A stretch of DNA of 64,000 bases, from the NCBI GenBank assembly GCA_016839945.1, contig JAEOTE010000019.1:326-64325 (forward strand), read 5' to 3'. A model generated the notes under the pieces. That model saw only the letters and a list, made by a program, of their open reading frames with translations, did not search any database and was not told the DNA's origin. Both the position numbers and the translations under genes were made by a program. The stretch comes from Candidatus Heimdallarchaeota archaeon. GTDB lineage: Archaea > Asgardarchaeota > Heimdallarchaeia > Heimdallarchaeales > Heimdallarchaeaceae. Shown piece after piece: positions 14,904 through 63,193 of the stretch (positions are counted from its first letter, which is position 1; each line of letters starts with the position of its first letter).

Positions 14904-14905
14904 TT

Positions 14906-16861: not shown

Positions 16862-16864
16862 TTT

Positions 16865-18285: not shown

Positions 18286-18286
18286 T

Positions 18287-19447: not shown

Positions 19448-19766
19448 CCTCTTCTGAACCTCCTTTATCTTCTTCTGGAACTTTTACATAAATTGCAAAT
19501 TCGGGACAGATTAACTCACAAAAATGACATTCTGCACAATCATCAAAGGTTTTCCCATCAACTAATTTAGGGGGGTGGTAGCCTTTTTCATTAATCTCAT
19601 CGGATTTTTCGAGTATCTCTTCAGGACAATGAATAATACACCATTCACATTCTTTACATCTTTCTTTAATGATGAAAACTTGTGGGGCTTTACCTTTATA
19701 TTTTCGAATGTCGATAAAAGCCGGCCATTCCGGCTTTTTTCGTCTTCTTTCCATTGATGAATTCAT
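19440..19766 (-). CDS. 2-oxoacid:ferredoxin oxidoreductase delta subunit (2x[4Fe-4S] ferredoxin)
   Basis: 108 aa with CKECEWCIIHCP and CAECHFCELICP. Overlaps alpha by 8 nt. The delta-alpha-beta-gamma order is kor-like; the substrate cannot be assigned. Confidence 0.8.
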   Translation of the reverse strand: MNSSMERRRKKPEWPAFIDIRKYKGKAPQVFIIKERCKECEWCIIHCPEEILEKSDEINEKGYHPPKLVDGKTFDDCAECHFCELICPEFAIYVKVPEEDKGGSEEDE

Positions 19767-19986: not shown

Positions 19987-20637
19987 TTGTTGAAAATGTT
20001 AACAAGAGATTTGAGTGTAACAATTCTTGGCAACACTGGTGTTGGAAAGACTACTTTAATTCATCGTTTAATTGGTGAAAAATTTGAAGATATTAGTCCT
20101 ACCACAAGTATTGAAGTTCATCAAAAAACAATTCGCTTAAGGAGTCAATCTATTAAATCTAGTTTTAGTTTAGAGAAATATAGAAATTATAGAGTTAGAG
20201 CAATTGATTGTCCTGGTGATATGAGTTTGTGGCCTTATTGGAAAAAAGCTCTAGCTGATTATAATACTAATGGTATTATTTTTATGATAGATCCAACACA
20301 GGATGCAAAAGTACAGATAGATGCACTTACTCAGGTTTCCAATTATTTCTTAATGACACTGGATGATGATGTTGCCAGAGCTGAAAGAAAAGCAAGAAAA
20401 GTGAAAGCAATATTTTTCCTTGTAGTAAACAAAGTTGATCTTCTCGACTATAGCAAAGGAAAAGCAGATCAAGTAATCAGAGAAAATTATCAAACAGCTT
20501 GGAATCATCTAAAAGAAAGATATCCAAATAGTGGTCATTACTGGGAAGCTATATCCGCTATCGATGAATCAGAACAGATGTATGAGTCTATCGATGGAAT
20601 TTTTGAAACAATAAAAAGAGAGATTTATGGAGACTAA
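19987..20637 (+). CDS. Ras-superfamily small GTPase (Rag/Arf-like, Asgard-type)
   Basis: G1 GNTGVGKTT, G3 DCPGD, G4 NKVD, G5 SAI. A ~25-aa insert sits between G1 and G3. Start is either TTG 19987 or ATG 19996. Confidence 0.8.
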   Translation: MLKMLTRDLSVTILGNTGVGKTTLIHRLIGEKFEDISPTTSIEVHQKTIRLRSQSIKSSFSLEKYRNYRVRAIDCPGDMSLWPYWKKALADYNTNGIIFMIDPTQDAKVQIDALTQVSNYFLMTLDDDVARAERKARKVKAIFFLVVNKVDLLDYSKGKADQVIRENYQTAWNHLKERYPNSGHYWEAISAIDESEQMYESIDGIFETIKREIYGD

Positions 20638-31576: not shown

Positions 31577-31583
31577 ATGGTAA

Positions 31584-33275: not shown

Positions 33276-36036
33276 TGCTCGAATAATTTTTCCCATCGTT
33301 TCAATATTGGCAGTAGGTTCATTAGAGGTAGATATAATCAAGAAAAGAATTCTTCGTATCAAGGATTCAGAAACCATCTTAGAATATCTTCTTGAATCAC
33401 TCATTTTAGGTTCAATTTCATTGATAATTCTTATGCTGATAATTGCAAGACTTGCAGATGTATTCGGTTTAACAACAATTTTGGAAAGATTTGTTTATGT
33501 TTATTTTTCCATAGGTTTGGCTTATCTAGTCTTTAAAATCTATAAATGGGTACGAAAGAAACTTCCAATTTATGCACTCTCAGATAAAAAAAGAATAACT
33601 GGTTCACTAGGAATTCTGCTTATAGTAATTATTATGTTAATGTTGTTTTTTTATATATTACAAGGGTTAGTATATCCTCTCCGAGGTTGGGATTTTCTTC
33701 ATTTTTACCTTCCAAATTCATTTCGTATTTATGTAACAGGTCAACTAGGAAAAATAAATGAGCTTAACTTCCTCCCTCAATTTAAACCCCCAGCAAATAT
33801 TTTATTGTATGCTTATACTTTCTTTGTAACTCAAGCTGAAATGCTTCATTTGGTTCCGATGCTCTTTTTATCTGGAACAGTTTTTCTTTGTTACAAAATA
33901 GCAATAGCTGAAGGGCTTTCAAAAAAAGTAGCATTGTTTGGTTCTATTGCTTTTTTGGCTACACCTTTAGTCTTTTTCTTAGTCTATGAATTTCAATACT
34001 ATCAAGAAGTATACATTATGTTCTTTTCAGCTGCTAGTTTCTATTTCTTTAGGCAATTTCTGAAAAAGAATACAACCAGAGAAAAGATATATACAGCACT
34101 TCTAACATCATTAAGTCTTACGGGGTGTGTGCTTAGTAAAATTAGTGGATTCATTATCCCTTTAGTAATTCTTGTAGCTGTTCCATCAGACAAAATTGGC
34201 AAAATCGTAAGATCAATCATCATTATTGGATTCACATTTCAATTATTCAGAAAATCTCTTTTTGATATCTTTTTAGGGACAAGCATTTTTCTTCTTCTTA
34301 TTGCTGGATACTGTGTTTATCTTGTTATGACCAGCAAATCATTACCATTTTCTTACACTAGGTGGTTGTACATAGCAGGTATCTATTCACTTCCCTTGGC
34401 AATAGGCGTATTTTGGGGGATTTTCATCTTAAGTATTCCTGGAGTTAAAGAGTACTTTTTAAGTCTGTATGTAAACCCAGTTTATCAAGTAGTTAGCTTG
34501 AAATGGCCTGGAATAGGTTTACCAGAAACTGAAACCTATCTAGAAAACGCTCATCATGCAACCTTTATTTCTTCATCATTTTCTATATTCCTTGCTTCTA
34601 TGTTTGCTGGAACATGGATCATTTTCAAAATAATTGGAATAGTCAAAACAAATAAGGAAAATAAAGAGATTTTACTTTGGTTATTCTTCTTCTTTTTGTT
34701 ATGGCAAGGTTTGTTTGCACATGGTTCAATAAGATATCTAACTCCTATCTTGATTCCTATATCTCTAGTTTTTGTGGTTGGAATTGATTCTGTAATTAAA
34801 TTCTTTAATAAAAGAGATGGATTGGAAAGAGATGGTTTCTTCGCAACAATTTTAATTATTGCTAGCGCTTATCTCTCACTCTATCCAATTATACCATTTG
34901 AAATTGTAAACGAAGATTTTCATCTACGATGGTATCAGGCTCACACTCATATTGGATCCTTACTTGGTTACATATTTTTATTTAATCTGTTATTTTTCTT
35001 GCTATTGTGGAAGGAGAAAAAGCTAAAGTTAAGTTTCTCTATGATATACAATAAGAAATTCAATTCTCGTAAAATTCTAGCTGGTTTTATTATTTTTATT
35101 CTATTTTTTGTGCCTTTTGGAGCACAAGCAGCTCTATTGATTCATGTGAAATTTGATATAGATAAGTTCCACAGTGAGTATTGCTATTATACTCGTACAT
35201 CTTTATTAGAATTAATTGATGCAATCAATAGATTAGGCTATGATGATAATCAAACAGTTTTATCAATCAACACTCCTGGATTAGAATATTACGCATCTCA
35301 ACCAGTGTTTGACATGTTTATGTTGAGCTTCATTGCTAGATCTGCATTAAGCAATTCAACGTTTCCATTAGCAACGAAAAACATTACGAAAATCATGGAA
35401 TTTTTCCAAAGCTATAACGTAGCAATCTTTGTTTCATTAAACACATCAAATGATTGGTATCCAGCATATCTAGAACGATACTATTGGAATTATGATATAT
35501 ATAGATTGATGAATAATAATCTCTTATTTACTTGGAGATTTTCTAATGAAGAGTATCTAATGTATACAATTAATTCTTACGATCAGTATATAGGTCCAGT
35601 AGACATTCAACTCGCAGGAAATGAAAGTAAAGAAAGTTTGTTAGCTAGAAATCCAAATTCTGCTGAGGTTCATGGAAACTATGCAAATCTTGATACTCTT
35701 CTTGATTTAACAGTAGTACCAACAAACGAATTAATTAACGTTAGTCTTTCAACAGCATATAATTTTTATGAGAATTCCTCAACTACAGTTTTTACAAAAG
35801 ATATTCAAATTGAAAAACCTTTGAATGATGAGTTTAACCGTTTAACACTCCTTTCTTTACCTAATGAAACAATAGCTATACAATCTGTTAATATTACAAT
35901 ATCCTATGAAAATTATGAAGGATATGTAGAAGAAATTTCATACAAACTGAAAGCTTTCATGCAAGAATCTGTTATTATTCAGAGAAGTACCAACTTCTGG
36001 TCTTATTCGGGGTATTATGGTTTTATTTACATATAA
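33262..36036 (+). CDS. polytopic GT-C-like membrane glycosyltransferase (ArnT/PMT_2-like) with large extracytoplasmic C-domain
   Basis: 924 aa with more than 13 TM helices. The first loop RGWDFLHFY...FKPPANILLYAY, followed by an A..P-rich helix, resembles GT39/GT83. No WWDYG motif, so it is not AglB/STT3. The C-terminal ~300 aa are soluble and rich in NxS/T. Start uncertain; it overlaps the upstream gene by 14 nt. Confidence 0.45.
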   Translation: MVSIDARIIFPIVSILAVGSLEVDIIKKRILRIKDSETILEYLLESLILGSISLIILMLIIARLADVFGLTTILERFVYVYFSIGLAYLVFKIYKWVRKKLPIYALSDKKRITGSLGILLIVIIMLMLFFYILQGLVYPLRGWDFLHFYLPNSFRIYVTGQLGKINELNFLPQFKPPANILLYAYTFFVTQAEMLHLVPMLFLSGTVFLCYKIAIAEGLSKKVALFGSIAFLATPLVFFLVYEFQYYQEVYIMFFSAASFYFFRQFLKKNTTREKIYTALLTSLSLTGCVLSKISGFIIPLVILVAVPSDKIGKIVRSIIIIGFTFQLFRKSLFDIFLGTSIFLLLIAGYCVYLVMTSKSLPFSYTRWLYIAGIYSLPLAIGVFWGIFILSIPGVKEYFLSLYVNPVYQVVSLKWPGIGLPETETYLENAHHATFISSSFSIFLASMFAGTWIIFKIIGIVKTNKENKEILLWLFFFFLLWQGLFAHGSIRYLTPILIPISLVFVVGIDSVIKFFNKRDGLERDGFFATILIIASAYLSLYPIIPFEIVNEDFHLRWYQAHTHIGSLLGYIFLFNLLFFLLLWKEKKLKLSFSMIYNKKFNSRKILAGFIIFILFFVPFGAQAALLIHVKFDIDKFHSEYCYYTRTSLLELIDAINRLGYDDNQTVLSINTPGLEYYASQPVFDMFMLSFIARSALSNSTFPLATKNITKIMEFFQSYNVAIFVSLNTSNDWYPAYLERYYWNYDIYRLMNNNLLFTWRFSNEEYLMYTINSYDQYIGPVDIQLAGNESKESLLARNPNSAEVHGNYANLDTLLDLTVVPTNELINVSLSTAYNFYENSSTTVFTKDIQIEKPLNDEFNRLTLLSLPNETIAIQSVNITISYENYEGYVEEISYKLKAFMQESVIIQRSTNFWSYSGYYGFIYI

Positions 36037-36078
36037 AATTCTAAAGAGTAAATAAAATTTCCTTGATTTTCGCAAAAT

Positions 36079-39000
36079 TTACCTTCGAGAATATACAATG
36101 CTTTTCTGTTTTCTATCTCTTCTAGCTATAATCAGAGATGTTATGAATGCTATTAGTAGAACAAACACGATATTTATGAAGAAAATAGACCAACTTCCTG
36201 TTGGTGCAAAAGTATGTCCAAAGAAAACAGTTTGATTAGCTGAAGCTAAAAACTTCAAAATGGCTCCTCCTATACCATAACCAAAACAAGCAGCAATAAG
36301 CGCAACAACGCTTATTCGAGAAAAAATTGAAACAAATACATTCAGATTAGTTCCACCAATCATTCTTAGTATGGTGCTTTCTCTTCTACTTTCAACATGA
36401 ACATTTTGCAATATTGAATACATATTTACAACGACAACTATCATAATGAGTAGTATCTCAGCATAAGCTAAGGTGTAAGTAAACAATAATGAACCTTTCA
36501 AATAATAATCCATATATTCTAGAGAAAGAGAAATAAAAAATTCAAAACCAGCATATGCTCTAAAAGGTATTTTCAGCCATTGATCTTCTGTTTCACTTGC
36601 AACAATTATCGTAATAGCTTCTTTTCCAGGTTCAAAAGCTCTTCTTAAATTAATAATATTCTCGTTAAAATCAATAAAAGATACATTTACGTAACCATAC
36701 GAAATCCAAAGGGAAACACTAGAGTAGAAACCTGTTGTGGTAGAAATATTTCCATCAAATAAAGTTGAGAAAACAACAGGTAAATTGAATACTTTAGATC
36801 CATTATCATAAACAAAAATAAATGTAACTTTGCTTCTATGAGAAGGGATTTTAAGATGAGTATACTGATTCGGATTAAATACCTGGAACGATACTGGATT
36901 AGCATTTCTGTGATCTGAGAAATAACAAGTATAATCCCCAGTAGCTAACAAAGTAGAGATCATTCCATTGTTATCAGTTCGTATTGACAAAACTCTTCTT
37001 CCTCTTACATCTCTAAAGATGCAATATTGATCAATAAGAGGTGAATCTGCGAAGTAATCACTTAAAGAAATAGTAACATTAGAAAAACCAATAAATATCT
37101 CTTGTTCTAGACCTACATTTGTGTTTAGAATAAAATCATATTGCAAAGTACTATAGTTAAAATGCACATGATAACTCCCTGAAAATATGTGAAAATCAAG
37201 AACACCTTCATTATTTGTATTCTTTTCATATACCGTTGTATTAAAGTTACTTCTAACTATAACTGAAAAATTAGATAATGGAAGAAGGGTTCCACTTCCT
37301 TGTACTTGGAATAATAATTGCTGATTTACATATTCTTTCCCTACATATATTGTATAGTCTACTGTTTTTTGGTTGTACAAAGAATCTTCTAAAAACAAAG
37401 TTATTGTATGCTTGCCAGCTTCATTAAAATCAACTAAAGAAAATCCTTGATATTGAAAAAGAGGACCTCTGTGATCTAGTTGAACCAATATGTTGACAGC
37501 ATCACTTTCTAAATCTAGAAATACATCTATCTCATGGCTACCAATTTCTGGGGATAGAAAAGTCACATAAGGTGGAATTGTATCAATGATGTAATCGAAT
37601 GAAGATTGAGAATCTGGGAAACCAGTTAATATTGAAGAGAAATTGTAATAACCATCGCTTAAATGAATTGGATTATTATTATTTATAGTAAAATTACAAT
37701 CATAATAAGGAAATGTGACAACTATATCACCTGTATAACTACTGTTAATCTGGTTAGCTTGTAACTGTGAGGAGCTTAATCCTTCTGTAATATTGAAATT
37801 CCAGCTTTTTATTTCATAATTGAAAACATCTATCCAGTATTCAATAACTAATGTATATTCTCCTGGATAAAGATATATCCTTGTATACTCAGTAATTTCT
37901 CCACTAAAATTCGCTTCTCCAAAAATTTCATACTTTATTTGGAAAAAACCTATAGAAGATATGGTTTGAATATCAATAAATGTTTGAGTAATTATTCCAT
38001 AATAATCATGTGCAAAATAGAAGTCTACTGGTGTCGTTCCTGTAAAATTCTCAGTGTTATATTCATAGTATTTCTGTATCAGATTTCCTGCAATATCCCG
38101 GGCTTCTATTGTTAAATTATGATAACCTTCTTTAAATGGACAACTAATCAAACCATATGCATATGAAAAATCTAGATTGTCCCAAGAGTAGCGAATCATT
38201 GAAAGGCTCTCATTAGAAGTGTAAAACATAGAACTCCCTGAGCTAATATCAGAACTATTGGAATGCTCTAATGTTATATCAGGTGGAGAGTTGTCAATAG
38301 TAATTTCATAATCTCTAAAATACCATACTGAACTTATAAGAGTTGACAGATGAAGTGTATGATTCCCCTCACTCAAACTCTCTGCTATAATCGTTCCATT
38401 ATTAGGAACAGGAATATCTACTTGGCTATCCCAATGATAGAGAACATTTGAAGCACCAATAGTATACCAGATCTGAATCTCTTCACTTTCTTTTATTATT
38501 CTATCTTGTAATCCAATAATCCCTAACTTCTCTGGATTTGAGGATGTAATGAAGATATAACTCCATTCTTTATTCTGGTTCCCTATTGAAGCTTTAATTA
38601 CAAGTCTATGAATACCTTTTTCTGCAGGAGTACGAATATTATGATTTTCTAAAATTTGCCAAATATCACTATTCCACTTATATTTAATATTATGACCAAA
38701 GTATATAGAATCGTTGAGATAAAGATTGCTTGAATATGGAATATGAGATCCATTCATAGCATTAAGAATATGCAACTCCTCTGGGAGACTGTGTGATATC
38801 GTAAAATACACTTTTGTTTCAGCATAATTTTGACTCTTATCACCATCAGATTCATAATCCTTGTTATAACATATAATTGTTAGAGAATGAGGACCTTCAT
38901 CAAATGGAATTACAATTTGATCAGGCACTATCTCTCCTTCAGAAGAGAAATGATATTCCTGAATATTTCCAGGATTTTCATCATAATAGAAATATGTTGA

Positions 39001-40260
39001 ATAACCTTGTGTAGCTGAAATTGAAACATTAAGATCATACCCTATGACAAGACTATGATTCTTGGGAAAACTAACTTGAATACTAGGGTGTCTATCTATT
39101 AACACAACTTCAAAGTAGTTATCTTCTCCTGTTGTGAAAGAAAATTCTCGATGATAAACCCCATATCTAAATGCAGCAGTATAACTCCCATTACTTGTTG
39201 TGAAAGATGCTTCTCCTGTACTATTAGTAAATAGACTGTATGATTTTAGACCTAGAACTTGTTCTACTGTAGACTTACTTTGAACAAATATCCAAGCTTC
39301 CTCAATTGGCTCATCTTCATCTGTTATAACTCTAAATGTAACCTCTCTCTCTATATAATTAATAAAAATAGAAATTGAAGTATCTCTTTCCAATATAATT
39401 CGTTTTGGTTCTGATACAATGTTTTCAATTTCTGCTTGAATTTCATATTCTCCAAAAGATAAATTTAAATCTACAATATTTGTGTTTAAAGGATATAGTT
39501 TCAAAGTACCTTTACTACTACTAATAGTGATTGTAGAATTTAGGACTTCTAAGCTATCTGGTGTGTTAAGTATTACTCTTAATGAATATTCAGATGTGAT
39601 TTTTTCCCTAATATACTCTTTATCAACCAAATTTGTGTCTATTTTTACTCTTATGTGGGTAACTCTGTTAAAATTCTCAAAAGAGAAAAATTGTCCTATC
39701 CAAAGAGGTGCAATTATCTCATCATCCAACAATGTTCCTGATCTGAATATAGATTTAACCTTCAGTTCAATTGCAGAATCACTTCTAGTTGAAAAAATTA
39801 AAAAGTATTCTCCTATTTCTAGGTTGTTTCTTTCTGCAAAATTGATTCCAATACTTACTTCAAATGTATCATTTTCGTCTAGCTTATAGCCTTCTTCAAT
39901 TTGAATGTCTGTGAATTCTGAAAATTTATTAACATCAACCCCTCTAAAATAAACTGCTTTATCTCTATAAACTGCAGCAGTCATCACTTCAGGACTGACG
40001 TCAATAACACCATAAACCGTTTTTATTGTTTCTGCTAATTCTAGAGGTAGGACACTAGTATATGGTGTTGAAGCTTGAGGATTGAAAATTACAAGAATAT
40101 CATCGCTTTCACCCAAATAGGAAGTTGTAGAATCAATAATACTTGTCATAAGTATTGCTCCTCCTGTAATTATAGTTGAGCTGATTAAGAAACCAATAAA
40201 AGCGATGAGGATACGTTTCTTGGGTAATATGTTATAGAGAAAAACATTTCTGATGTTCAC
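36079..40260 (-). CDS. giant FtsX/MacB-type permease with ~1000-aa extracytoplasmic insertion
   Basis: 1393 aa. N-terminal TM plus MacB-like periplasmic domain (YGVIDVSPEV..AVYFRGVD...IGINFAERNNLEIGEYF). C-terminal FtsX 3-TM bundle (STILRMIGGTNLNVFVSIF..). The middle is beta-rich with dozens of NxS/T sequons. The GTG start overlaps the upstream stop (GTGA). Confidence 0.7.
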   Translation of the reverse strand: MNIRNVFLYNILPKKRILIAFIGFLISSTIITGGAILMTSIIDSTTSYLGESDDILVIFNPQASTPYTSVLPLELAETIKTVYGVIDVSPEVMTAAVYRDKAVYFRGVDVNKFSEFTDIQIEEGYKLDENDTFEVSIGINFAERNNLEIGEYFLIFSTRSDSAIELKVKSIFRSGTLLDDEIIAPLWIGQFFSFENFNRVTHIRVKIDTNLVDKEYIREKITSEYSLRVILNTPDSLEVLNSTITISSSKGTLKLYPLNTNIVDLNLSFGEYEIQAEIENIVSEPKRIILERDTSISIFINYIEREVTFRVITDEDEPIEEAWIFVQSKSTVEQVLGLKSYSLFTNSTGEASFTTSNGSYTAAFRYGVYHREFSFTTGEDNYFEVVLIDRHPSIQVSFPKNHSLVIGYDLNVSISATQGYSTYFYYDENPGNIQEYHFSSEGEIVPDQIVIPFDEGPHSLTIICYNKDYESDGDKSQNYAETKVYFTISHSLPEELHILNAMNGSHIPYSSNLYLNDSIYFGHNIKYKWNSDIWQILENHNIRTPAEKGIHRLVIKASIGNQNKEWSYIFITSSNPEKLGIIGLQDRIIKESEEIQIWYTIGASNVLYHWDSQVDIPVPNNGTIIAESLSEGNHTLHLSTLISSVWYFRDYEITIDNSPPDITLEHSNSSDISSGSSMFYTSNESLSMIRYSWDNLDFSYAYGLISCPFKEGYHNLTIEARDIAGNLIQKYYEYNTENFTGTTPVDFYFAHDYYGIITQTFIDIQTISSIGFFQIKYEIFGEANFSGEITEYTRIYLYPGEYTLVIEYWIDVFNYEIKSWNFNITEGLSSSQLQANQINSSYTGDIVVTFPYYDCNFTINNNNPIHLSDGYYNFSSILTGFPDSQSSFDYIIDTIPPYVTFLSPEIGSHEIDVFLDLESDAVNILVQLDHRGPLFQYQGFSLVDFNEAGKHTITLFLEDSLYNQKTVDYTIYVGKEYVNQQLLFQVQGSGTLLPLSNFSVIVRSNFNTTVYEKNTNNEGVLDFHIFSGSYHVHFNYSTLQYDFILNTNVGLEQEIFIGFSNVTISLSDYFADSPLIDQYCIFRDVRGRRVLSIRTDNNGMISTLLATGDYTCYFSDHRNANPVSFQVFNPNQYTHLKIPSHRSKVTFIFVYDNGSKVFNLPVVFSTLFDGNISTTTGFYSSVSLWISYGYVNVSFIDFNENIINLRRAFEPGKEAITIIVASETEDQWLKIPFRAYAGFEFFISLSLEYMDYYLKGSLLFTYTLAYAEILLIMIVVVVNMYSILQNVHVESRRESTILRMIGGTNLNVFVSIFSRISVVALIAACFGYGIGGAILKFLASANQTVFFGHTFAPTGSWSIFFINIVFVLLIAFITSLIIARRDRKQKSIVYSRR

Positions 40261-41432
40261 ATATGATCCTCCCTGATAACTTTAATTTTGGATGCTACTA
40301 TTGAAGGATATATTCCTGATACTATTGATAATGATATAGCAAATAAAAAAATGATTCCCACTGTTGCAGCATTAATATTCATTGATAAGAATGGTAATCC
40401 AATAAAAGCTGAAACTAAACCAACTATACCACTTACAGCAAAATATCCAATAAACAAAGAAAGAACAGCTGAAATAACACCAATAAACAAGGCTTGCATC
40501 ATAAACAGAAGAATTATTTGTCCCCTAGTTGCTCCAATCGATCTTAAAATAAATATCTCTTCTTCACTTTCTTTGACTAAGGTATAAATACTGTAAGTTA
40601 TAGAAACAAGCATCAAAGCAAAGAACATAATCTCTAGTAAGGTTAGTGTTTTTACTACCTCTTCAGTTGCATAACGAATAAAATTCTGTGTTTGTTTTTC
40701 TTCCGTAATTTCAAGACCATCAAACTTCATAGTTATTTCTTCAATTATTGTACCAACCTCTCTTGTATCTAAAATAAATAGCTCAATAAAAGACACATAA
40801 TTCAAAGTGGTATTTATAAAAAAATCGTTAATTGAACCTAAAACTTCAATATCAAATTCTTGACCCGTTTCTAGAATATTAGTTATTGTATAATTATCTT
40901 TAATATAGAACGAAGAAGATGAGTTTATTGTAATAATTGAGCTTTCTACTCCCACAATAGCTCCAGCTCCCGCAGTTAGAAAATTCACTATCTGTTGTCC
41001 CATAATTAACTCATTACTCTCTGGTGGTTCAAAACTATAGGTATACTTTGGATTGTGATATTGATGAAACGTAGTGAAATTCAATAAACGCAAATGTGTG
41101 TCAATCTCAATTCCAGTTTCCCCAACAACTGATATAGGAAAATAGAGTTGAGGTAAAATTATATTTACATTAGGTGTTGTTTCCGAATACTCTTCTAGAA
41201 AAGCAATAACCTCTATATCGATTCTGCTATCAGAAAAGCTTTTTTGATTTTCAGTAATTAGAAGATAATGTGATGGTTGGATTATATTTGCCATTCCGCT
41301 AATATTAGCAGCATATCCTCCAACAAGAAGAACTGTTGCAAGATAAATTACCAAAGCTAAGGTCAGAGTCAAAGTAGCTTGATATGTTCTCTTTCTGTTA
41401 TGAAAAAAGAATCTAACAATAAATCTTAGCAT
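40257..41432 (-). CDS. FtsX/MacB-type ABC permease-like protein
   Basis: 391 aa. N-terminal TM, ~230-aa external domain, FtsX signature ILRSIGATRGQIILLFMMQALFIG. Confidence 0.7.
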   Translation of the reverse strand: MLRFIVRFFFHNRKRTYQATLTLTLALVIYLATVLLVGGYAANISGMANIIQPSHYLLITENQKSFSDSRIDIEVIAFLEEYSETTPNVNIILPQLYFPISVVGETGIEIDTHLRLLNFTTFHQYHNPKYTYSFEPPESNELIMGQQIVNFLTAGAGAIVGVESSIITINSSSSFYIKDNYTITNILETGQEFDIEVLGSINDFFINTTLNYVSFIELFILDTREVGTIIEEITMKFDGLEITEEKQTQNFIRYATEEVVKTLTLLEIMFFALMLVSITYSIYTLVKESEEEIFILRSIGATRGQIILLFMMQALFIGVISAVLSLFIGYFAVSGIVGLVSAFIGLPFLSMNINAATVGIIFLFAISLSIVSGIYPSIVASKIKVIREDHM

Positions 41433-41531: not shown

Positions 41532-42863
41532 TTACGTTGGAGCTGCCCAAGAGAAGAAGAACAACCTCTGAATAATCAATGTTAGATATATTGAAACTGC
41601 TATTGCAAATAGTGAGGGTATTCTTGTTTTAGAAGGTGTAATCCTATTAACACCAATACCTAGGAAGAGCAGGAAAATTACTAGAAATATATTAAGTGGT
41701 ATTTGTACCGCAAGCTGGTACGTTAGGTGTAAAGATTCCTCAGCAAATATAGCTTCACCTGGGTGAAGTCCTATAGCTTCGAGATAAGTTGTTCCTCCAA
41801 ATATGCTTCCTATTAGAAGTAAAAAGATAGCAATTGATGAGATAAACATTGCATTCTTGTAGATATTTCCCCATTTTTTCCTTTCACCTAGTAAAGATGA
41901 ATAAATCAGTGGAAAGATAAATACCCATGAGAACCAAGTTACAGAACCAATTAGTATTTGATCTCCTACGTCACTCTCATGAATATTGAATGTACGAAAA
42001 TCAAAATCTGCTTCCAAACCACCTATCAAGTTACCTGGTGATAATGGATACACTCGCAATTCAACGAAATATCCACCTGCAAAACACATTATACTTAAGA
42101 AGACTATGAATGAAACAAATATGCTTATCAAGAAATAATTTGGGAGAAGTTCTGCATAACTTGCTCTTGTTGGTCTTAATAAGTAGTCTCTAGAGAATCT
42201 AAATATATCTTTTACATGTGTAAATTTGAATAACAAATAAACTGCTATCGCTGGTATTCCAATTACTGCAATTAGAAGTAGAATATACAGAATAAAGTCA
42301 ACTACACCAATTGTAAGTTTATCTAATAAACCATTCCAAATAAAGGTTTTAATATCAAAATCTGGCATCCCCTTGAAAGGTGGAGAACCAAATATAATCA
42401 TGGTATACCAGCTTATAGTTAAAGCCACAAATATTGTAGCCAAATAGTCCCATACTCTGAATTTCCTCTTTTGGGTGTCAAGATACCATAATTTCTTGTA
42501 AATGATTTCGGTTGCATCAACTTCAAAGTCTGAAAGAACTAAACCATCTATCCTTACTTCTCCATATTTCTCAAAGAATCTTCTGGCAATCATATCGAGG
42601 AGGTCCTCTGTATCTTTTGTATCCATCCTTTTGTCAACTGTTAAAACAAACAATAGGTCGCTTTCTTCCTCTTGAAAAACTACTCTTGATGTCACCATTT
42701 CAAATTCAGATATTTTCTCTCTTTGGGTTTCAGAAGCCATAGAATATATGGCACTCATTAAACCACCAGTGAGAGCAATATCAACAGCCTCTTCAGTTTT
42801 CTCAAATTCTTGACTATAGAAAATCTGTCCATAAGTTGTTAAGATGAGAAGATGCTTTATCAC
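41532..42863 (-). CDS. membrane protein: N-terminal longin-like domain fused to a ~7-TM domain
   Basis: 443 aa. The first ~115 aa are soluble (MIKHLLILTTYGQIFYSQEF...GGLMSAIYSMASE...LLFVLTVD...LLDMIARRFFEKYGE), followed by seven hydrophobic helices. Confidence 0.5.
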   Translation of the reverse strand: MIKHLLILTTYGQIFYSQEFEKTEEAVDIALTGGLMSAIYSMASETQREKISEFEMVTSRVVFQEEESDLLFVLTVDKRMDTKDTEDLLDMIARRFFEKYGEVRIDGLVLSDFEVDATEIIYKKLWYLDTQKRKFRVWDYLATIFVALTISWYTMIIFGSPPFKGMPDFDIKTFIWNGLLDKLTIGVVDFILYILLLIAVIGIPAIAVYLLFKFTHVKDIFRFSRDYLLRPTRASYAELLPNYFLISIFVSFIVFLSIMCFAGGYFVELRVYPLSPGNLIGGLEADFDFRTFNIHESDVGDQILIGSVTWFSWVFIFPLIYSSLLGERKKWGNIYKNAMFISSIAIFLLLIGSIFGGTTYLEAIGLHPGEAIFAEESLHLTYQLAVQIPLNIFLVIFLLFLGIGVNRITPSKTRIPSLFAIAVSIYLTLIIQRLFFFSWAAPT

Positions 42864-45843: not shown

Positions 45844-46242
45844 TTATGCTTTGTGATCAAGTACTTTTTCGAATGTACTATCACCTGATGTAAAGGTAAA
45901 TGTGAAAGTATATTCAGTACCTATTGCAAAAGTACCTTTAATTATAACTGTAATTTTTGCGTTTTCAGCAATTGCAGCTCCCACGTTACTTACTTCTAAG
46001 GGTGTCACTGTTTCACACGTCACTCCATCAAATATTAAATCTCCACCTCTTGCTTCAATTTCAATTGAAATGGATCTATGTGTTCCATTTACAGATGAAG
46101 ATGCTGGAGTAGCTACAAAGTAAGGTGTTGCACCTGGTCGAAGCATAGGTATAACCACTAAGAAAACAATTGCTGCTGCAGCTGTTACTAGAGCGATTAG
46201 TAAGACTGTTGCTATTACTGGAGATACGGCTCTCTTCTTCAT
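45844..46242 (-). CDS. archaeal type IV pilin-like protein (class III signal peptide, DUF361-type)
   Basis: 132 aa. MKKRA|VSPVIATVLLIALVTAAAAIVFLVV is the canonical prepilin-peptidase site plus hydrophobic helix. Confidence 0.75.
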   Translation of the reverse strand: MKKRAVSPVIATVLLIALVTAAAAIVFLVVIPMLRPGATPYFVATPASSSVNGTHRSISIEIEARGGDLIFDGVTCETVTPLEVSNVGAAIAENAKITVIIKGTFAIGTEYTFTFTFTSGDSTFEKVLDHKA

Positions 46243-46408
46243 ATTTATTCACCATTTATTTTATAAAGTAGTCGAGTCTTTTTATTGTCGCCTTACTTAA
46301 AAACGTAGCGATAGTTTTTTACTTAAGGTTATTAGCAACCATTTTGGAAGAGTTTTTGCAAATTAACAATTGTTTATATTTGTGTATGTTATTATTTATT
46401 TGACAAAA

Positions 46409-47104
46409 ATGGATGCTGCAGCTAATATGATTTTTCGATCCATAAATGCTATTTATGAAGGAGCAATTAGCAGCAGTACTCTCTATCCAACATTATACTT
46501 TCTTGAAAATGAAAAGAAATGCACATTTTATGGTTTTAGAATCAGAGAAATAATTCCTACACGTTTGATTGTTAGAATATATGAAGAAGAGAAGAATTTC
46601 GTTGTAGATATGCTGTGGTTAGTTGATGATATAAAAATAGAAGGTAAGGGTCATTTATTATTTTCAGGAAAATCTTCAAAGATAAGTGTTGAAGGGTCTC
46701 CAAAATTTTATTTAAATAAAACAAAAGATGATGTAACAATTCAAGCATGTTATGAAGATTTGTTACTACCTTCTGACTTCTTTCAAATGATGGTTGTTGG
46801 TTCTAAAGAATTGTTTCCTCCTAAAATCCAAAGTGAAACCAAAATCAACATTGGAAAAATTCCTACTCATCTATATTCATTCTCAAGGTGCATTTTGAAT
46901 CAAAAAAAGATTAAAGATGAGGAATATCAAGATATTGTAATAAACGCTTTTCTAGCTCTTATCGATTTAGTTCATAGATCATTAGAAATATTAAACTCTT
47001 TGAATCAAAAGCACAAGGGACCTGATGTTTTTTGCATTAGATGTGGACAAAAATTACCCTCTGATTCATATTACTGTCCTATATGTGGAACAAAGCAAAG
47101 TTAA
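46409..47104 (+). CDS. hypothetical protein with C-terminal zinc ribbon
   Basis: CIRCGQKLPSDSYYCPICGTKQS at the C-terminus. I prefer ATG 46409 over the track start 46370. Confidence 0.5.
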   Translation: MDAAANMIFRSINAIYEGAISSSTLYPTLYFLENEKKCTFYGFRIREIIPTRLIVRIYEEEKNFVVDMLWLVDDIKIEGKGHLLFSGKSSKISVEGSPKFYLNKTKDDVTIQACYEDLLLPSDFFQMMVVGSKELFPPKIQSETKINIGKIPTHLYSFSRCILNQKKIKDEEYQDIVINAFLALIDLVHRSLEILNSLNQKHKGPDVFCIRCGQKLPSDSYYCPICGTKQS

Positions 47105-47114
47105 GATTAAGTTA

Positions 47115-47462
47115 TCAAGTATGATACAATATTTCTGCTTTTTCTATTAGCTCTAAAGTATCGGTCTGGTTAGCTAAATCTCTAGCATTTGGGGAAAAAT
47201 TATTTGCGATTATAAACCCACCACTTAAATTTGTTCTCTGTACTAGTCGTTCAATATGAATGATTTTATCAGTTCCCACAGATCTTTTCCAATCAAGTAC
47301 CCAGACTCCTACTAATAGCTCTTGTACTAAGATAAGAAAATCAATAGAATGTTTAGTGGAACCTTGGATTAATGATAATTCATGAGTAATAGTTCCGTAA
47401 TTTTTTAAATATTCCAACGCTAGTTCCATAAGTGGTGTATCGCGAGCCATTTTAACCGGCAA
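47115..47462 (-). CDS. small Mrr/PD-(D/E)xK-like restriction-endonuclease-fold protein
   Basis: 115 aa. HSIDFLIL...VWVLDWKRSVGTDKI..ERLV...GGFIIANNFSPNARDLA matches the D...(D/E)xK core and the Mrr_cat C-terminal pattern. Confidence 0.4.
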   Translation of the reverse strand: MPVKMARDTPLMELALEYLKNYGTITHELSLIQGSTKHSIDFLILVQELLVGVWVLDWKRSVGTDKIIHIERLVQRTNLSGGFIIANNFSPNARDLANQTDTLELIEKAEILYHT

Positions 47463-47496: not shown

Positions 47497-47802
47497 CTAC
47501 TCTTTTATCTCAGTTTCGATTATCTTTCTATTACATTTAACAGTCCATTTTCCCTTTTTACTAAAATTTAGAGAAATTTCTTTTTGAAATCCTTTGATAA
47601 CTTGAGCTGCCATTAAATCCGGGTTCCTTTTTGCGAACAGTTTTATGTCAACTTCTAAAATCTCTGGAGAATAGTAAATTTTTTCTGATTCTAGATTCCA
47701 AGCTGCATCTCTAAGATATCCAACTATTTCGAGAATTACTTCTTCATCTACTTTTGGTTCGGTTTTAAACCTTAATTCAGAGATATCCGCAAGCTTCTTC
47801 AT
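47497..47802 (-). CDS. hypothetical protein
   Basis: 101-aa ORF lying 34 nt upstream of, and co-directional with, the Mrr-like gene. Confidence 0.4.
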   Translation of the reverse strand: MKKLADISELRFKTEPKVDEEVILEIVGYLRDAAWNLESEKIYYSPEILEVDIKLFAKRNPDLMAAQVIKGFQKEISLNFSKKGKWTVKCNRKIIETEIKE

Positions 47803-47911: not shown

Positions 47912-49381
47912 ATGTCTTCGTCTTTATCTAAACTTCTAAAAAGAATTAATGTTAAAGATGCAATTTATTTGTCAGTGTTTGCAATTATTATCTTCTTAAT
48001 TGTAAAGATGATGTTTGGAGGGATTTTTGGTCTATCATTAGTTGTTATAGAAAATGGTCCTAGATCAAGTATGTGGCCAACTTATGATCAAGGGGATATG
48101 TTTCTTATCAATCGATGTTCTCCTGAAAAAATAGAAATGGGAGATGTTATAGTATATGAATCAGCAAATTCATTCAATAGCGGAATTCTGATTATCCATC
48201 GTGTTATTAATATTACAGTTTTTGAAGATGCTACTGGATCTCATTATTACTTTAGAGTAAGTGGGGATAATCCTATAACAAACAACAATGTTGACAGTTA
48301 TAATATATCATCAACACTTATCCCTTATGATGCTGTTCTTGGAAAAACTGTATTACTTATTCCAAAAATAGGGTATGTTCGCTTGTGGATGACAAATTTT
48401 CCAGCTATCAGATATATAATACTTGGTGCTCTGATTATATTCGGATTATATCTGATTTTAACACCTGATAAAGAAGAAGCTAAAAAAGCAAAAGATGCTG
48501 TTCAGAAAGATAAAAAGAAAAATATCTGTCTGTTTTGTAAAAATAAGATCGAAAAAACTGATGATCAAGGTTTAGGTGTTTGCAGTAATTGTGGTAAGCA
48601 ATCTCCCTTTTGTGAAATTTGTAAAAATCCTATGACAAGTGATCAAACACTTTTACAAGCTGAAGCATGTGGTCATATTTATCATGAAGAGCATATTTTG
48701 GAATGGATTAAAATAAAAGGAACTTGTCCTGTGTGTAAAGTTAAAATCACTGAAAATACATTAAACATCTGGGAAAGCTCTGAAAAAGATGAGATTACAA
48801 GTTCAACAGAAGAGACAATAGATAAAGAATTCCATAACCTTGGTGAACAAGAAACTGAAACAAAATTTGATTTTAAATTATTCTTAAATAATCAATGGAC
48901 AAAAACAAAAAAGAATTTCAAAGAACTTTTCACAGTTAAACAAAAAAGGATTAAATTAATAATTTTCGTATCAGTAATTTTGTTCTTAATAATAGCTATT
49001 CCAGTTATAGATACTCTAATTCGTTATCCTAATCTAAATACTGCAATAGACGATGTTAAACTTCTGCCTTATAGGGAGTATGAGGATGAATCAATGGTAT
49101 TTCTTCCATTCACAATTTATTTCAAACATGATGGTTCATGGAATAAAGTAGTGAAGAATTTTGAAATATTTGGACTACAAAATGATACCGTTCTATCAAC
49201 TATGAAATGGTATTCTTATTTACAAGTTGAGGGAAATCAGACTTTAGGGGGATCCTTGATTTTTAATTCATTTGAGTTTAACTCTAATGTTACATTGACG
49301 ATTGAAATTCACTACTCCATTCATTATAGATTTGGTGCAGATAGAAGTATGGTTTATACTGAAGATTTTAATTTATCTTAA
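47912..49381 (+). CDS. SEC11/archaeal-type signal peptidase I domain fused to a cytoplasmic zinc ribbon plus RING-H2 finger and an extracytoplasmic C-domain
   Basis: SPase motifs SSMWPT (catalytic Ser), IIHRVI (His) and SGDNP. Three TM helices. CLFC..CSNC ribbon, then CEIC-x14-CGHIYHEEH-x10-CPVC. I prefer ATG 47912, which is in frame with the track start 47843. Confidence 0.75.
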   Translation: MSSSLSKLLKRINVKDAIYLSVFAIIIFLIVKMMFGGIFGLSLVVIENGPRSSMWPTYDQGDMFLINRCSPEKIEMGDVIVYESANSFNSGILIIHRVINITVFEDATGSHYYFRVSGDNPITNNNVDSYNISSTLIPYDAVLGKTVLLIPKIGYVRLWMTNFPAIRYIILGALIIFGLYLILTPDKEEAKKAKDAVQKDKKKNICLFCKNKIEKTDDQGLGVCSNCGKQSPFCEICKNPMTSDQTLLQAEACGHIYHEEHILEWIKIKGTCPVCKVKITENTLNIWESSEKDEITSSTEETIDKEFHNLGEQETETKFDFKLFLNNQWTKTKKNFKELFTVKQKRIKLIIFVSVILFLIIAIPVIDTLIRYPNLNTAIDDVKLLPYREYEDESMVFLPFTIYFKHDGSWNKVVKNFEIFGLQNDTVLSTMKWYSYLQVEGNQTLGGSLIFNSFEFNSNVTLTIEIHYSIHYRFGADRSMVYTEDFNLS

Positions 49382-52555: not shown

Positions 52556-53125
52556 ATGAGCATGTTCGGTTCATTCTCTACATGGTTAAGGGCTAAACTC
52601 AAAAAAGAACAAAAAGCCAAAATTCTTATTCTAGGACTAGATGCGGCAGGGAAAACAACCCTAACCAGATTCATGAGATTTGGAAGATTTGCAGAAAATC
52701 TCACACCTACTATAGGACAGAACATTGAAAGTTTTGAATTTGAAGGATGGACTATTACAGCAATTGATGTTGCTGGACAATCACATTTCCGTTTCTTGTG
52801 GGAAGCTCATTATCCTGGTTGTAGTGCTGTTATTTTTGTTATTGATGCAGCTGATATAGAGCGTTTACCAGAAGCAAGAGATGTCTTAAAGACTCATGTT
52901 TTTAATAATCCGTACATGGAAAATGTACCAACATTAATCATGGCCAATAAACAAGATCTTCCTGGAGCAGTGGAAGCCCCACTACTAATTCAAATGCTAG
53001 GTCTTCATCTTGATTTGAAGGACAGAACCTTTGCTGTTTTTGATACAAGTATTTTACATGGGAAGGGAATTAAAGAAGCTTTTATATGGTTAGTAAATGA
53101 ATTGGATACTCATTTAGAACAATAA
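52556..53125 (+). CDS. Arf/Arl-family small GTPase
   Basis: 189 aa. ILILGLDAAGKTT, PTIGQN, IDVAGQ..FLW, ANKQDL and a predicted N-terminal amphipathic helix (MFGSFSTWLRAKLKK). Collinear with eukaryotic Arf1. Confidence 0.85.
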   Translation: MSMFGSFSTWLRAKLKKEQKAKILILGLDAAGKTTLTRFMRFGRFAENLTPTIGQNIESFEFEGWTITAIDVAGQSHFRFLWEAHYPGCSAVIFVIDAADIERLPEARDVLKTHVFNNPYMENVPTLIMANKQDLPGAVEAPLLIQMLGLHLDLKDRTFAVFDTSILHGKGIKEAFIWLVNELDTHLEQ

Positions 53126-60847: not shown

Positions 60848-63193
60848 ATGTCCTTAGAGAATATAACCCTTAATCTTGAACAATTAAGTCTTTATCTTTC
60901 TGAAAAACAGAACCTATCACACAAGTATAAAGGGATAAATTACAGTCATTCGATTTCTATAATTAACAACATTGTTGTATTTCAAGATACAGAATCACTT
61001 TATGTTAGAATGAGAACATTCTCACCTGCTCTTATTCATTCACTTGTCAAAAACAAGCATCTAGTGCATGCTCCTTTCAAATCTGGAAAATTAGCATATG
61101 TTGGAAAACAGCTCTTATCAAGTTTTTATTATATGAATCTAAAAGAAAATATTGAATACAAAAAACCAGATACAAGAGCAGTATTGGATTTTATTAAAGA
61201 TCAAGGAGCAGCAACTCGACAGAAAATTATGGAATCTTTTAAGTTATCAAAAGAAGAAGTCATGGATATTCTTTCAGAACTTAGAATGAACTTTCAAATA
61301 TTCATGTTCTATGATGGAACTACTTGGACAATTAATCATGCAGACATTCTACTAGATGAAACTCAAATTAGCAAAGCTTCTGCAACCACTGAACTAATTC
61401 GTAAGCTGATCAAAAGCTATGGCCCCATCACGGTTCCTCAAATCATGTCTATTCTCCAGATGTCGGGAGGAAGAGTAAGTACAAGTATCATTGAGTTGTT
61501 TGAGAACAAGAAAATTATTAGAGGATACTTCATAGAAAACTCTAGCTATGAAGCATTCTTAGCAGCTGATGAACTAGAGTATCTTGAGGAATTCCTCAAC
61601 AAATATTCAAGTGAAAGCAAAAAGGAATTAGAAATTTTACCATTATCTGACCCATTAGCTGAATATTGGGCGTCTGCAGATTTTATTAACCTAGGTGAAA
61701 TTCATCAAGAAATACTTCTAGTTTCAGGAAAACCAATATGTTCTTTTGATTATAAGATAATAGGAGATAACCTACATATTCTAAACCTCACTAAATCCTC
61801 TGAATATCCAAGCTTTGAAGATGAAGCAAAAACAAAAATACAAGAATTTTCCGAAAACAAAGGTAAAATTCTTGTTTTCCCAGAATTACGGTCAGAAGCC
61901 CTTGAAAATCAATCAAGAGAATTTGTACAAACACTAACTCAAAGAGGATATTTAGCTAGATCAGATGGATTAGTATATCATGCCTCTAAATTTACTAAGA
62001 AAGAAAGTAGTGAAAGACTACTATCTTATAGTGATGTTTTTGAGCTTCTAATAGACATTCAATCATTAATAAAAACAAGGTTATTTAGTTCTAAAGCTGA
62101 TATTGTTAAAGGGTTGTCTAATCTAGGGATTCCCCTCTCCACCTCCTCATTACTTATTCGGATAGAAACTGGAAAAGATCATTTAGTTAATGAGATGATT
62201 ATTAACAAACAATTAGTATCAGGAAAATTTGGAGCTTTTTTTAGAGGTATTATTTCTTCTAAAGATTACAAAATATTTTCTAAACTAAGCGTTACTAAAA
62301 AAGTGGGAGTATTAGAAGAAAAGACTCTGAATTTTATTAAACAGAAAGAAAAAGTTGACTTTAAACAATTAAAAGCTGCTATTAATCTTTCAGATAGAGT
62401 ATTGTTGTCAACATTACTTCGTCTTGAAACTGCACATGAGATAGTTCAATCAAAATCAGTATCAAATCAAACAATCTGGATGCCTGTCTCTAAGTTTATG
62501 AGTGGAGTTAAAGCAATTGAGATAGAATCACAGAGAGAAGCTTGGATAGACGTTCTTTACAGATTTTTGTCATCAAATCTACCTTTGACTATTAATCAAA
62601 TAGCAAATATAACTGGATTATCAAATACACAGATTGAGGTCTATCTTAAAGAAATGATAGCTTCCAAAGGAGTTAGATCTGGACGCTTTATTGAAGAAGA
62701 AAATGAAGTTCAATTCACAACTAAAGAAATTGAAGAATTAATAGCTGGATACATCTATCAAAGAGGTGAATTGGAAGGACAAAAAGAATCTATATCGATG
62801 ATTTATATTCCACGAAACGATCCTTTACTAACATTATACAAAACCTATCTCCTAAAAAGATTCAAACTTAAATCTCTCTTTATTAGAGCTTTACCCTCTG
62901 ATTTTGCTGAATTAATTCTTATGAATGGCATTCCTGTTACCGCTTTACATTTCAAAAAACAGGAAAAGATTGAGTATGTAAACAATATTGAAATTCTGCC
63001 CGAATACAATGACTCTCACTCTCTCATACTGATATTTAGTGCGATACAAGAGCACCTGAACAAAACAAAAGATAAAGGAAAACGCCAGTTAAGAATAAAA
63101 CAAATAAACGGTGTCTTACTCCATTCAGAAGCAGGAAAAAAATATCTCTCTCTAATCAAGGATATGCAACTTGATTTTCTTATCCAACCTTAG
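60848..63193 (+). CDS. stand-alone tandem AlkZ/YcaQ-like winged-helix repeat protein (paralog of the Lhr C-terminal extension)
   Basis: 781 aa. The ATG directly follows the Lhr TAA (TAAATG). WH units include LIRKLIKSYGPITVPQIMSIL and LPLTINQIANITGLSNTQIEVYL. Beta-units include LEILPLSDPLAEYW..ILLVSGKPICSFDYKI and MIYIPRNDPLLTLY. Confidence 0.6.
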   Translation: MSLENITLNLEQLSLYLSEKQNLSHKYKGINYSHSISIINNIVVFQDTESLYVRMRTFSPALIHSLVKNKHLVHAPFKSGKLAYVGKQLLSSFYYMNLKENIEYKKPDTRAVLDFIKDQGAATRQKIMESFKLSKEEVMDILSELRMNFQIFMFYDGTTWTINHADILLDETQISKASATTELIRKLIKSYGPITVPQIMSILQMSGGRVSTSIIELFENKKIIRGYFIENSSYEAFLAADELEYLEEFLNKYSSESKKELEILPLSDPLAEYWASADFINLGEIHQEILLVSGKPICSFDYKIIGDNLHILNLTKSSEYPSFEDEAKTKIQEFSENKGKILVFPELRSEALENQSREFVQTLTQRGYLARSDGLVYHASKFTKKESSERLLSYSDVFELLIDIQSLIKTRLFSSKADIVKGLSNLGIPLSTSSLLIRIETGKDHLVNEMIINKQLVSGKFGAFFRGIISSKDYKIFSKLSVTKKVGVLEEKTLNFIKQKEKVDFKQLKAAINLSDRVLLSTLLRLETAHEIVQSKSVSNQTIWMPVSKFMSGVKAIEIESQREAWIDVLYRFLSSNLPLTINQIANITGLSNTQIEVYLKEMIASKGVRSGRFIEEENEVQFTTKEIEELIAGYIYQRGELEGQKESISMIYIPRNDPLLTLYKTYLLKRFKLKSLFIRALPSDFAELILMNGIPVTALHFKKQEKIEYVNNIEILPEYNDSHSLILIFSAIQEHLNKTKDKGKRQLRIKQINGVLLHSEAGKKYLSLIKDMQLDFLIQP

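Follow-up and report, generated by a model that had tools for sequence, protein, structure and literature searches.

A Heimdallarchaeal signal peptidase I homolog with a zinc-ribbon and RING-type module inserted in its predicted cytoplasmic loop

We analysed a 64,000-nucleotide stretch of DNA from a Candidatus Heimdallarchaeota archaeon (NCBI GenBank assembly GCA_016839945.1, contig JAEOTE010000019.1, positions 326 to 64,325 of the forward strand; hereafter the window, in whose numbering all positions are given), and focus here on an open reading frame (ORF) at 47912..49381 on the plus strand, which encodes a protein of 489 amino acids (aa). Judged by its sequence, the N-terminal half of this protein is a type-I signal peptidase of the Sec11/archaeal S26B type, predicted to be active. 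In one genus-level clade, a module consisting of a zinc ribbon and a RING-H2-type finger is inserted into the Lys-rich loop between the second and third transmembrane (TM) segments of this otherwise orthologous peptidase. We consider it an even proposition that the RING recruits a ubiquitin-charged conjugating enzyme (E2~Ub) of the Asgard ubiquitin cascade, which would make the protein a protease outside the cell and a ubiquitin ligase (E3) inside it. The original prediction, a reading of the DNA letters by a model, knew of no description of such a fusion, and in full-text literature searches, too, neither a fusion of signal peptidase and RING nor a signal peptidase complex of Asgard archaea turned up. 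The fusion is apparently undescribed, a new domain architecture made from known parts.

The fusion is real and no artefact. Database searches recovered five orthologs carrying the RING (488-489 aa, 82-90% identity), and the same architecture recurs, with identical synteny, in assemblies made independently (NCBI, three ENA samples, JGI and Logan). As start codon, the ATG at 47912 was preferred to a TTG upstream of it at 47843, which was rejected because MSSSLS opens all orthologs. We estimated dN/dS among five orthologs by the Nei-Gojobori method (dS 0.6-1.1) and obtained 0.10 for the protease domain, 0.15 for the zinc ribbon, 0.095 for the RING, 0.07 for TM3 and 0.09 for the C-terminal domain, with the acidic linker behind the RING as the least constrained segment (0.26). 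Purifying selection constrains the insert to about the same degree as the protease domain. A functionless product, whether a neutral or decaying accident or a chimera of assembly or gene calling, would fit the narrow distribution of the fusion and the disordered, fast-evolving linker that flanks the finger. Against this, at least five assemblies and samples, independent of one another, carry the fusion intact and free of frameshifts, six of six orthologs keep the full set of 12 zinc ligands while adjoining non-ligand residues vary, and dN/dS in the insert is 0.10-0.15. Independent assemblies, ligand conservation and dN/dS together effectively refute this explanation, to which we give a very low probability.

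The assignment of the N-terminal half rests on several concordant matches. The NCBIfam model TIGR02228 (sigpep_I_arch) scored 56.4 bits against a cutoff of 51.85, and Pfam Peptidase_S26 came slightly under its cutoff (20.7 vs 22.9). Human SEC11A/C were the top sequence matches in the PDB (E = 6e-9), and the three catalytic boxes could be aligned to those of SEC11A, SSMWP to GSMEP (Ser), IIHRV to IVHRV (His) and SGDNP to KGDNN (Asp). In an alignment of 58 homologs, Asp119 is invariant and Ser53 and His96 are at least 90% conserved; the predicted general base is His rather than Lys, which is the Ser-His-Asp pattern of S26B. To our knowledge, the S26B enzymes characterised so far from archaea and eukaryotes measure roughly 180-250 aa and have no loop RING, TM3 or beta-sandwich. 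The present protein shares with the Sec11/archaeal S26B family (MEROPS; TIGR02228) an N-in TM anchor, an outside catalytic domain with the Ser, His and Asp boxes and a hydrophobic segment after it, but it differs by an extra 300 aa, made up of the loop with zinc ribbon and RING, TM3 and an outside beta-sandwich.

Three hydrophobic segments were found (aa 17-41, 164-183 and 348-368). Lys and Arg together account for 4 of 16, 8 of 20 and 7 of 22 residues on the predicted inside flanks and for 1 of 20, 3 of 20 and 3 of 20 on the outside flanks, and nine of the ten Cys residues of the protein fall within the predicted cytoplasmic loop. The Lys and Arg counts strongly favour a predicted N-in/out/in/out topology, with the peptidase outside, the finger in the cytoplasm and the beta-sandwich outside. 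In the full-length AlphaFold2 (AF2) model (predicted local distance difference test, pLDDT, 76.7; predicted template modelling score, pTM, 0.60), the peptidase and the beta-sandwich (aa 378-486) are confident and the TM3 helix is long. These results agree with the original prediction, which had recognised a SEC11/archaeal-type signal peptidase in the N-terminal half, had led the chain back to the cytoplasm after TM2, and had placed an outside domain of about 150 aa after TM3, now modelled as a beta-sandwich of aa 369-489. Charge bias and Cys distribution both put the finger in the cytoplasm rather than outside the cell.

Pfam zf-RING_2 (PF13639) matched aa 234-276 with 35.5 bits, and 40.0 bits for the excised segment, above its gathering score of 27.3, and all six RING-bearing orthologs match the same profile. 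The ligand pattern is C234-x2-C237-x15-C253-x-H255-x2-H258-x2-H261-x10-C272-x2-C275, with Trp265 present; the spacing is canonical for a RING, with His261 in place of Cys as ligand 6. Ahead of the RING lies a four-Cys ribbon (C206, C209, C224 and C227). The original prediction had described a CxxC..CxxC zinc ribbon in this loop, followed by a finger aligning with eukaryotic RING-H2 fingers, and had proposed the zf-RING_2 profile search; the ribbon is there, and the finger type, the ligands and the Trp stand, but the first spacer is x15 and not x14. The RING has sequence matches in the PDB to RNF4, RNF126, RNF38, RNF13 (E = 4.9e-4) and synoviolin, with HRD1/synoviolin/AMFR among the weaker ones.

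The AF2 model of the module reached a mean pLDDT of 86 and a pTM of 0.72, with 95-96 in the RING core. Foldseek superposed it on RNF4, Rad18, RING1B, TRAF6, TRIM21, RNF38 and Prp19 U-boxes with a root-mean-square deviation (rmsd) of 1.1-2.4 A; solved cross-brace RINGs were aligned over 54-61 columns at 1.1-2.0 A, and RNF4 (2xeu_A) gave a TMt of 0.74 and an rmsd of 2.0 A. Since the model superposes on solved cross-brace RINGs, we infer cross-brace zinc geometry, and the predicted fold is a RING instead of the two independent zinc ribbons that the original prediction had named as a refutation of its reading. When ribbon and RING were taken together, the best Foldseek matches (84-94 columns) were an IFT-A subunit (9a2d_F, TMq 0.58), GATOR2/SEA subunits and the Zn-RING-Zn domain of LNX.

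The ligands are conserved not only in the orthologs but also across module homologs. Among 102 module sequences, the four ribbon Cys residues are kept in 98-100, C234, C253, H258, C272, P273 and C275 in all 102 each, and C237 in 101. Four further RING positions (236, 265, 273 and 276) are, as we presume from established knowledge of RING-E2 complexes, the equivalents of E2~Ub contacts in eukaryotic RINGs. The residue at 236 is hydrophobic in 98 of the modules, Trp265 is present in 93, Pro273 in 102 and Lys or Arg at 276 in 71, and the protein studied here has I236, W265, P273 and K276. The basic residue after ligand 8 is the 'linchpin' in RING-E2 complexes. Position 261, ligand 6, is His in 81 modules, Glu in 15 and Cys in 5. 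His255, ligand 4, is found in 45 of the 102 and alternates, almost mutually exclusively, with Cys250 in a C-P-x-C motif (Cys250 only, 48; His255 only, 41; both, 4; neither, 9), which suggests that the two residues may be alternative solutions for one zinc site.

The history of the insert could be read from RING-less relatives. Database searches returned about 50 Heimdallarchaeal homologs without the RING, of roughly 360-420 aa, and alignment showed that they have the peptidase, TM2, a variable Lys/Glu-rich loop, TM3 and a conserved C-terminal domain of about 120 aa. Ribbon and RING form one block of about 85 aa, absent from these shorter homologs. Gene order is common to a RING-less locus of Ca. 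Heimdallarchaeaceae (P0007) and a RING-bearing one (P0004): FtsX proteins, AdoHcyase, GDPD, a pilin-like protein, a Zn-ribbon protein, an Mrr-like protein and the peptidase, followed by sucD, sucC, L44e, Rpb6, an Arf-like GTPase, RsmB, GNAT and Lhr. Because this order is identical, the two peptidases are orthologs and the block is an insertion. The zinc module is present in only 6 of 58 family members, which are 82-90% identical, and the insertion is therefore recent. When one genome was taken per GTDB species, 23 family loci remained, all from Heimdallarchaeota or Ca. Heimdallarchaeum, and one of them (isolate YT1_048) has the insertion.

Three small genes, at 46370-47104(+), 47115-47462(-) and 47497-47802(-), always lie beside the peptidase in syntenic contigs. 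The first encodes a protein of 231-244 aa with a zinc ribbon (CIRCG...CPICG) at its end, the second an Mrr_cat-like protein of about 111-115 aa, and the third a protein of 101 aa with a weak ORF11_beta match. In a divergent member of the peptidase family (P0054, L006 3001-4239; 524 aa, 36% identity), the N-terminus is extended by about 100 aa on the cytoplasmic side and the loop is longer, but there is no zinc motif; the cytoplasmic parts of the family thus appear to be hot spots for additions.

The origin of the module itself was traced with an exhaustive HMMER search using the excised module (aa 196-292, window 48497-48787), which matched 1674 proteins at E <= 1e-3, with 56 of the matches reaching E <= 1e-10; when only the RING segment was used as query in a word-indexed search, no homolog was returned. 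The best matches are 40-54% identical across ribbon and RING together, over the 85-aa module, and share the signature C-x2-C...C-x-N-C-G...C-E-I-C-K...C-x-H-x-F-H-x2-H-I-x-E-W-I-x-x-K-G-x-C-P-x-C-K. Their source names include 'RING finger domain-containing protein [Ca. Heimdallarchaeaceae]' and 'E3 ubiquitin protein ligase [Asgard group archaeon]'; OLS32983.1 of Heimdall AB_125 carries the module, and NPD89218.1 and NPE08552.1 are other examples. Full-text literature searches on Heimdallarchaeal transmembrane RING proteins turned up no prior description. Because the homologs share the ribbon and RING signature across diverse Heimdallarchaeal proteins, the insert is a copy of a promiscuous, lineage-expanded module. 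Heimdallarchaeia have a large, shuffled family of mostly membrane-tethered Zn-ribbon and RING modules, a eukaryotic-style expansion of predicted E3s.

Two relatives are close to the insert. One (P0059) is a protein with four TM segments whose module is 54% identical to the insert, and its assembly (GCA_019057815.1) has its own peptidase ortholog without the RING. The other (P0062, L030 6001-6501) is a free-standing module protein of 166 aa from a related genome, 51% identical to the insert, whose gene is three genes downstream of an ortholog (61% identity) of the window ORF 60848-63193. Just past base 64000 of the window there may be a counterpart of this gene, from which the insert could have been derived.

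The peptidase stands apart from the rest of this family in the placement of the module. Elsewhere, it lies at the extreme C-terminus (95 of 98 representatives), whereas here it is internal, and among the cases examined the peptidase is the only one with the module between two TM helices of a housekeeping enzyme. This placement bears on a different explanation, in which the RING is a genuine E3 and the peptidase merely holds it at the membrane, so that its targets are unrelated to secretion or are limited to the peptidase, whose turnover it would regulate. TM segments are predicted in 57 of the 98 representatives, nearly always ahead of the module, and the partner domains are mutually unrelated (LRR, PCI/HTH, TSP3, beta-helix/NosD and multi-TM regions without assigned family). 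Because the module sits on so many unrelated Heimdallarchaeal proteins, the peptidase may be one more membrane anchor. The fusion in 1 of 23 GTDB species and an ancestral loop that was a variable Lys/Glu-rich linker, and would have tolerated an insertion, also fit this explanation. The internal position in a conserved housekeeping enzyme speaks against it, as does purifying selection as strong as on the protease domain, and we regard it as unlikely, though to be taken seriously.

Archaeal and Asgard cascades of activating enzyme (E1), E2 and RING protein are active in vitro, and E3 activity has been seen for those Asgard RING proteins that have been assayed (PMC5654768; bioRxiv 10.1101/2023.07.25.550441). 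Ubiquitin is encoded by Heimdallarchaeota LC2, LC3 and AB_125 (PMC5654768). Two E2s of Heimdall AB_125, the source of the module protein OLS32983.1, possess a catalytic Cys (PMC9192718). In the literature surveyed, the ESCRT component UEV-Vps23 is the sole archaeal ubiquitylation substrate (bioRxiv 10.1101/2023.07.25.550441). Compared with srfp of the archaeal ubiquitin operon (Caldiarchaeum/Asgard) and with Asgard RING E3s, the present protein likewise has a RING-type finger in an archaeon with relatives that encode ubiquitin, E1 and E2. Unlike srfp, which shares an operon with ubiquitin, E1, E2 and Rpn11, it has housekeeping genes as neighbours in all assemblies, and its RING is within a membrane enzyme, follows a zinc ribbon of its own and uses His as ligand 6.

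On the bifunctional reading, the RING would dock the ubiquitin-charged E2 of the Asgard E1/E2/RING cascade, in which case the protein would be bifunctional, with ubiquitylation of cytoplasm-exposed lysines on nearby proteins. Candidate targets at the translocon would be precursors that are stalled or remain uncleaved, and fragments of signal anchors; alternatively, the peptidase could be its own target, for control of its turnover. The low dN/dS of the insert (0.10-0.15) and the conserved putative E2-contact positions favour a real function. That the targets are the clients of the peptidase, in a quality control resembling endoplasmic-reticulum-associated degradation (ERAD), as the original prediction had suggested, is speculative and improbable.

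Several observations weigh against the bifunctional reading. Ligand 6 is His and not the canonical Cys, the tandem of ribbon and RING is also similar to RINGs in GATOR2 and IFT-A that have a structural role and are not ligases, and the structural evidence throughout consists of predicted models. The fusion is restricted to a narrow clade and so is neither an ancestral nor a general feature, and the fusion partners of the module are many and unrelated, so the pairing with the peptidase may carry no pathway-specific meaning. In the 64-kb window, phmmer with human ubiquitin and UBE2D2 found no ubiquitin or E2, a regular-expression search found no second RING, no deubiquitinase gene was found, and Pfam found no E1, E2 or ubiquitin family on 30 further window ORFs, E1 having been checked by Pfam alone. 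Ubiquitin-system genes were also not found within 10 kb in syntenic contigs or beside two other module-bearing genes.

Some of these points would fit a role of the zinc ribbon and RING as a non-catalytic zinc scaffold, for dimerisation or for docking to a partner such as the ribosome, translocon or cytoskeleton, as with the C-terminal RINGs of GATOR2/SEA and IFT-A subunits. The best whole-module Foldseek matches (IFT-A, GATOR2/SEA subunits and LNX Zn-RING-Zn), the failure to find ubiquitin-system genes in the window, syntenic contigs and neighbourhoods examined, the non-canonical ligand 6 and the variation of ligands 3/4 across the family are all in line with such a scaffold. It is harder to reconcile with the strong family-wide conservation of Ile/Val236, Trp265, Pro273 and Lys/Arg after the last Cys, with the active RING-H2 ligases (RNF4, RNF126, RNF38, RNF13 and synoviolin) to which the finger is matched by Pfam and by PDB sequences, and with the activity of those Asgard RING proteins that have been assayed, and we judge it rather unlikely.

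The bifunctional reading invites comparison with eukaryotic membrane-protein quality control. According to a passage of PMC11639773 that cites Zanotti et al. 2022, the signal peptidase complex (SPC) cleaves misfolded membrane proteins and in mammals binds the RING-H2 ligase Hrd1, with which it clears such proteins, and spc2 and hrd1 mutations interact genetically in yeast. The fusion mirrors this SPC-Hrd1 partnership, as that passage presents it, in having a Sec11-type protease on the far side and a RING-H2 finger on the cytoplasmic side of the membrane; it differs in that one polypeptide carries both predicted activities, and in being a recent, clade-specific event and not an ancestor of the eukaryotic arrangement. 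Compared with Hrd1/gp78-type ERAD ligases, the likeness is confined to the RING: the protein has no more than three TM helices, of which the peptidase family backbone accounts for two, and is without the Hrd1-like multi-spanning retrotranslocation domain. A Rosetta-stone interpretation, in which the fusion would couple signal-peptide processing at the membrane to ubiquitin tagging on its cytoplasmic face, in the archaeal lineage closest to eukaryotes, as a one-polypeptide prototype of the SPC-Hrd1 axis, with the beta-sandwich as a built-in Spc3-like subunit and the family as a fused proto-signal-peptidase complex, is one that we find quite improbable.

A second comparison is with ligases that combine an outside domain, a TM helix and a cytosolic RING-H2 (PA-TM-RING ligases; RNF13, RNF128/GRAIL and plant RMR), in which the outside protease-associated (PA) domain is non-catalytic. 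The present protein has this layout in common with them, and the RNF13 RING ranks among its best PDB sequence matches, but its outside domain is a predicted active S26 peptidase, and its RING is followed by one more TM helix and a further outside domain; a Pfam scan of the protein gave no match to a PA domain.

Should the RING prove to be an active E3, the protein would be the first from a prokaryote to combine, across a membrane, a protease of the secretory pathway with a ubiquitin-ligase module, and a compact, expressible object for testing how Asgard ubiquitin acts on membrane proteins. Because the fusion is narrowly distributed, claims on eukaryogenesis are limited. Eme et al. 2023 list translocon-linked eukaryotic signature proteins (OST and TRAP), and signal peptidase is not among them.

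In the C-terminal part of the protein, TM3 and the beta-sandwich are common to the aligned Heimdallarchaeal orthologs (P0006-P0057, L006-L027), with or without the RING. The Heimdallarchaeal signal peptidase has, family-wide, an extra TM helix and beta-sandwich in the position of Spc3 in the eukaryotic complex. Like subunit 3 of the SPC (Spc3/SPCS3/SPC22/23, PF04573), this part has a predicted type-II TM anchor and a predicted outside beta-sandwich associated with a Sec11-type protease. Unlike it, it gives no sequence signal, and generic beta-sandwiches score better. PF04573 had no match at E <= 10 in 58 members, the domain had no Pfam match, its profile had no PDB sequence match, and hhalign against an SPCS3 alignment gave P = 0.27-0.65, a weak test (the alignment was vertebrate-heavy, supplemented with yeast and Arabidopsis sequences). 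In Foldseek, human SPCS3 (7p2p_B, identity verified) ranked fourth (E = 2.8e-3, 171 columns including the TM helix, TMt 0.37), behind the TMEM106B luminal domain (1.5e-5), AF_0446 (2.6e-5) and ApaG. Homology of the beta-sandwich to Spc3/SPCS3 is unsupported by sequence, and the rank-4 Foldseek match is kept as a lead; the resemblance of TM3 and beta-sandwich to Spc3 remains a positional and topological analogy.

Table 1. Predicted features of the peptidase gene, in window coordinates
Feature	Coordinates	Strand	Evidence
Whole gene: signal peptidase I with inserted Zn-ribbon and RING module	47912..49381	+	ORF list, five orthologs, synteny; stop codon included
TM1, N-in signal anchor, aa 17-41	47960..48034	+	Hydropathy peak 2.54; 4 Lys/Arg in 16 on the N-terminal flank; AF2 helix 14-35
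Extracytoplasmic Sec11/archaeal-type S26 peptidase domain, aa 42-163	48035..48400	+	TIGR02228, SEC11A/C matches, pLDDT 87-96, dN/dS 0.10
Catalytic codon, Ser53	48068-48070	+	
Catalytic codon, His96	48197-48199	+	
Catalytic codon, Asp119	48266-48268	+	
TM2, aa 164-183, chain back to cytoplasm	48401..48460	+	Hydropathy 2.34; then 8 Lys/Arg in 20; aligns with SEC11A C-terminal hydrophobic segment
Lys/Glu-rich juxtamembrane loop, aa 184-203, module insertion site	48461..48520	+	In all orthologs; variable length in RING-less ones (alignment)
Zinc ribbon, aa 204-229, C206-x2-C209 ... C224-x2-C227	48521..48598	+	Cys conservation, dN/dS 0.15, pLDDT 83-89 (module model)
RING-H2-type finger, aa 230-279	48599..48748	+	zf-RING_2 above gathering score, AF2 pLDDT 95-96, Foldseek, dN/dS 0.095
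Acidic/Ser-rich disordered linker, then Lys-rich amphipathic pre-TM3 helix, aa 280-347	48749..48952	+	pLDDT 30-33 (aa 290-322), helix 321-341
TM3, aa 348-368	48953..49015	+	Hydropathy 3.0; helix 343-369; dN/dS 0.07
Extracytoplasmic beta-sandwich domain, aa 369-489	49016..49378	+	7 or 8 strands, pLDDT 80-96, dN/dS 0.09

The remainder of the window holds Sir2 and other housekeeping genes, and several groups that can be named. A long co-directional cluster at 5662-19766(-) includes POR, POR_N, TPP_enzyme_C and ferredoxin domains, which are subunits of pyruvate:ferredoxin oxidoreductase, together with an Mvh/Hdr-like set (FlpD/MvhD, the NiFe small subunit Oxidored_q6, a CCG-domain HdrB-like protein, a HycI maturation protease and Fe-S proteins). 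Two Arf-family small GTPases are encoded at 19987-20637(+) and 52556-53125(+), and a 443-aa protein at 41532-42863(-) has a sub-threshold match to the FUZ/MON1/HPS1 first longin domain (22.5 bits vs a gathering score of 26.1); Arf GTPases and a longin-like protein are trafficking proteins of the eukaryotic-signature type that is typical of Heimdallarchaeia.

The regions 29855-36036(+) and 36079-41432(-) encode two family-2 glycosyltransferases, then a 924-aa PMT-domain protein (dolichyl-phosphate-mannose protein mannosyltransferase), and, beside the glycosyltransferases, proteins of 1393 aa and 391 aa whose syntenic orthologs match the FtsX domain. Taken together, the genes from 29855 to 41432 look like a neighbourhood for glycosylation at the cell surface and for export. 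Close to the peptidase gene, 45844-46242(-) encodes a 132-aa protein with an archaeal type-IV pilin-like N-terminus, MKKRAVSPVIATVLLIALV; class III signal peptides of this kind are substrates of prepilin peptidase and not of signal peptidase I. The orthologs of this protein have a weak Pilin_N match.

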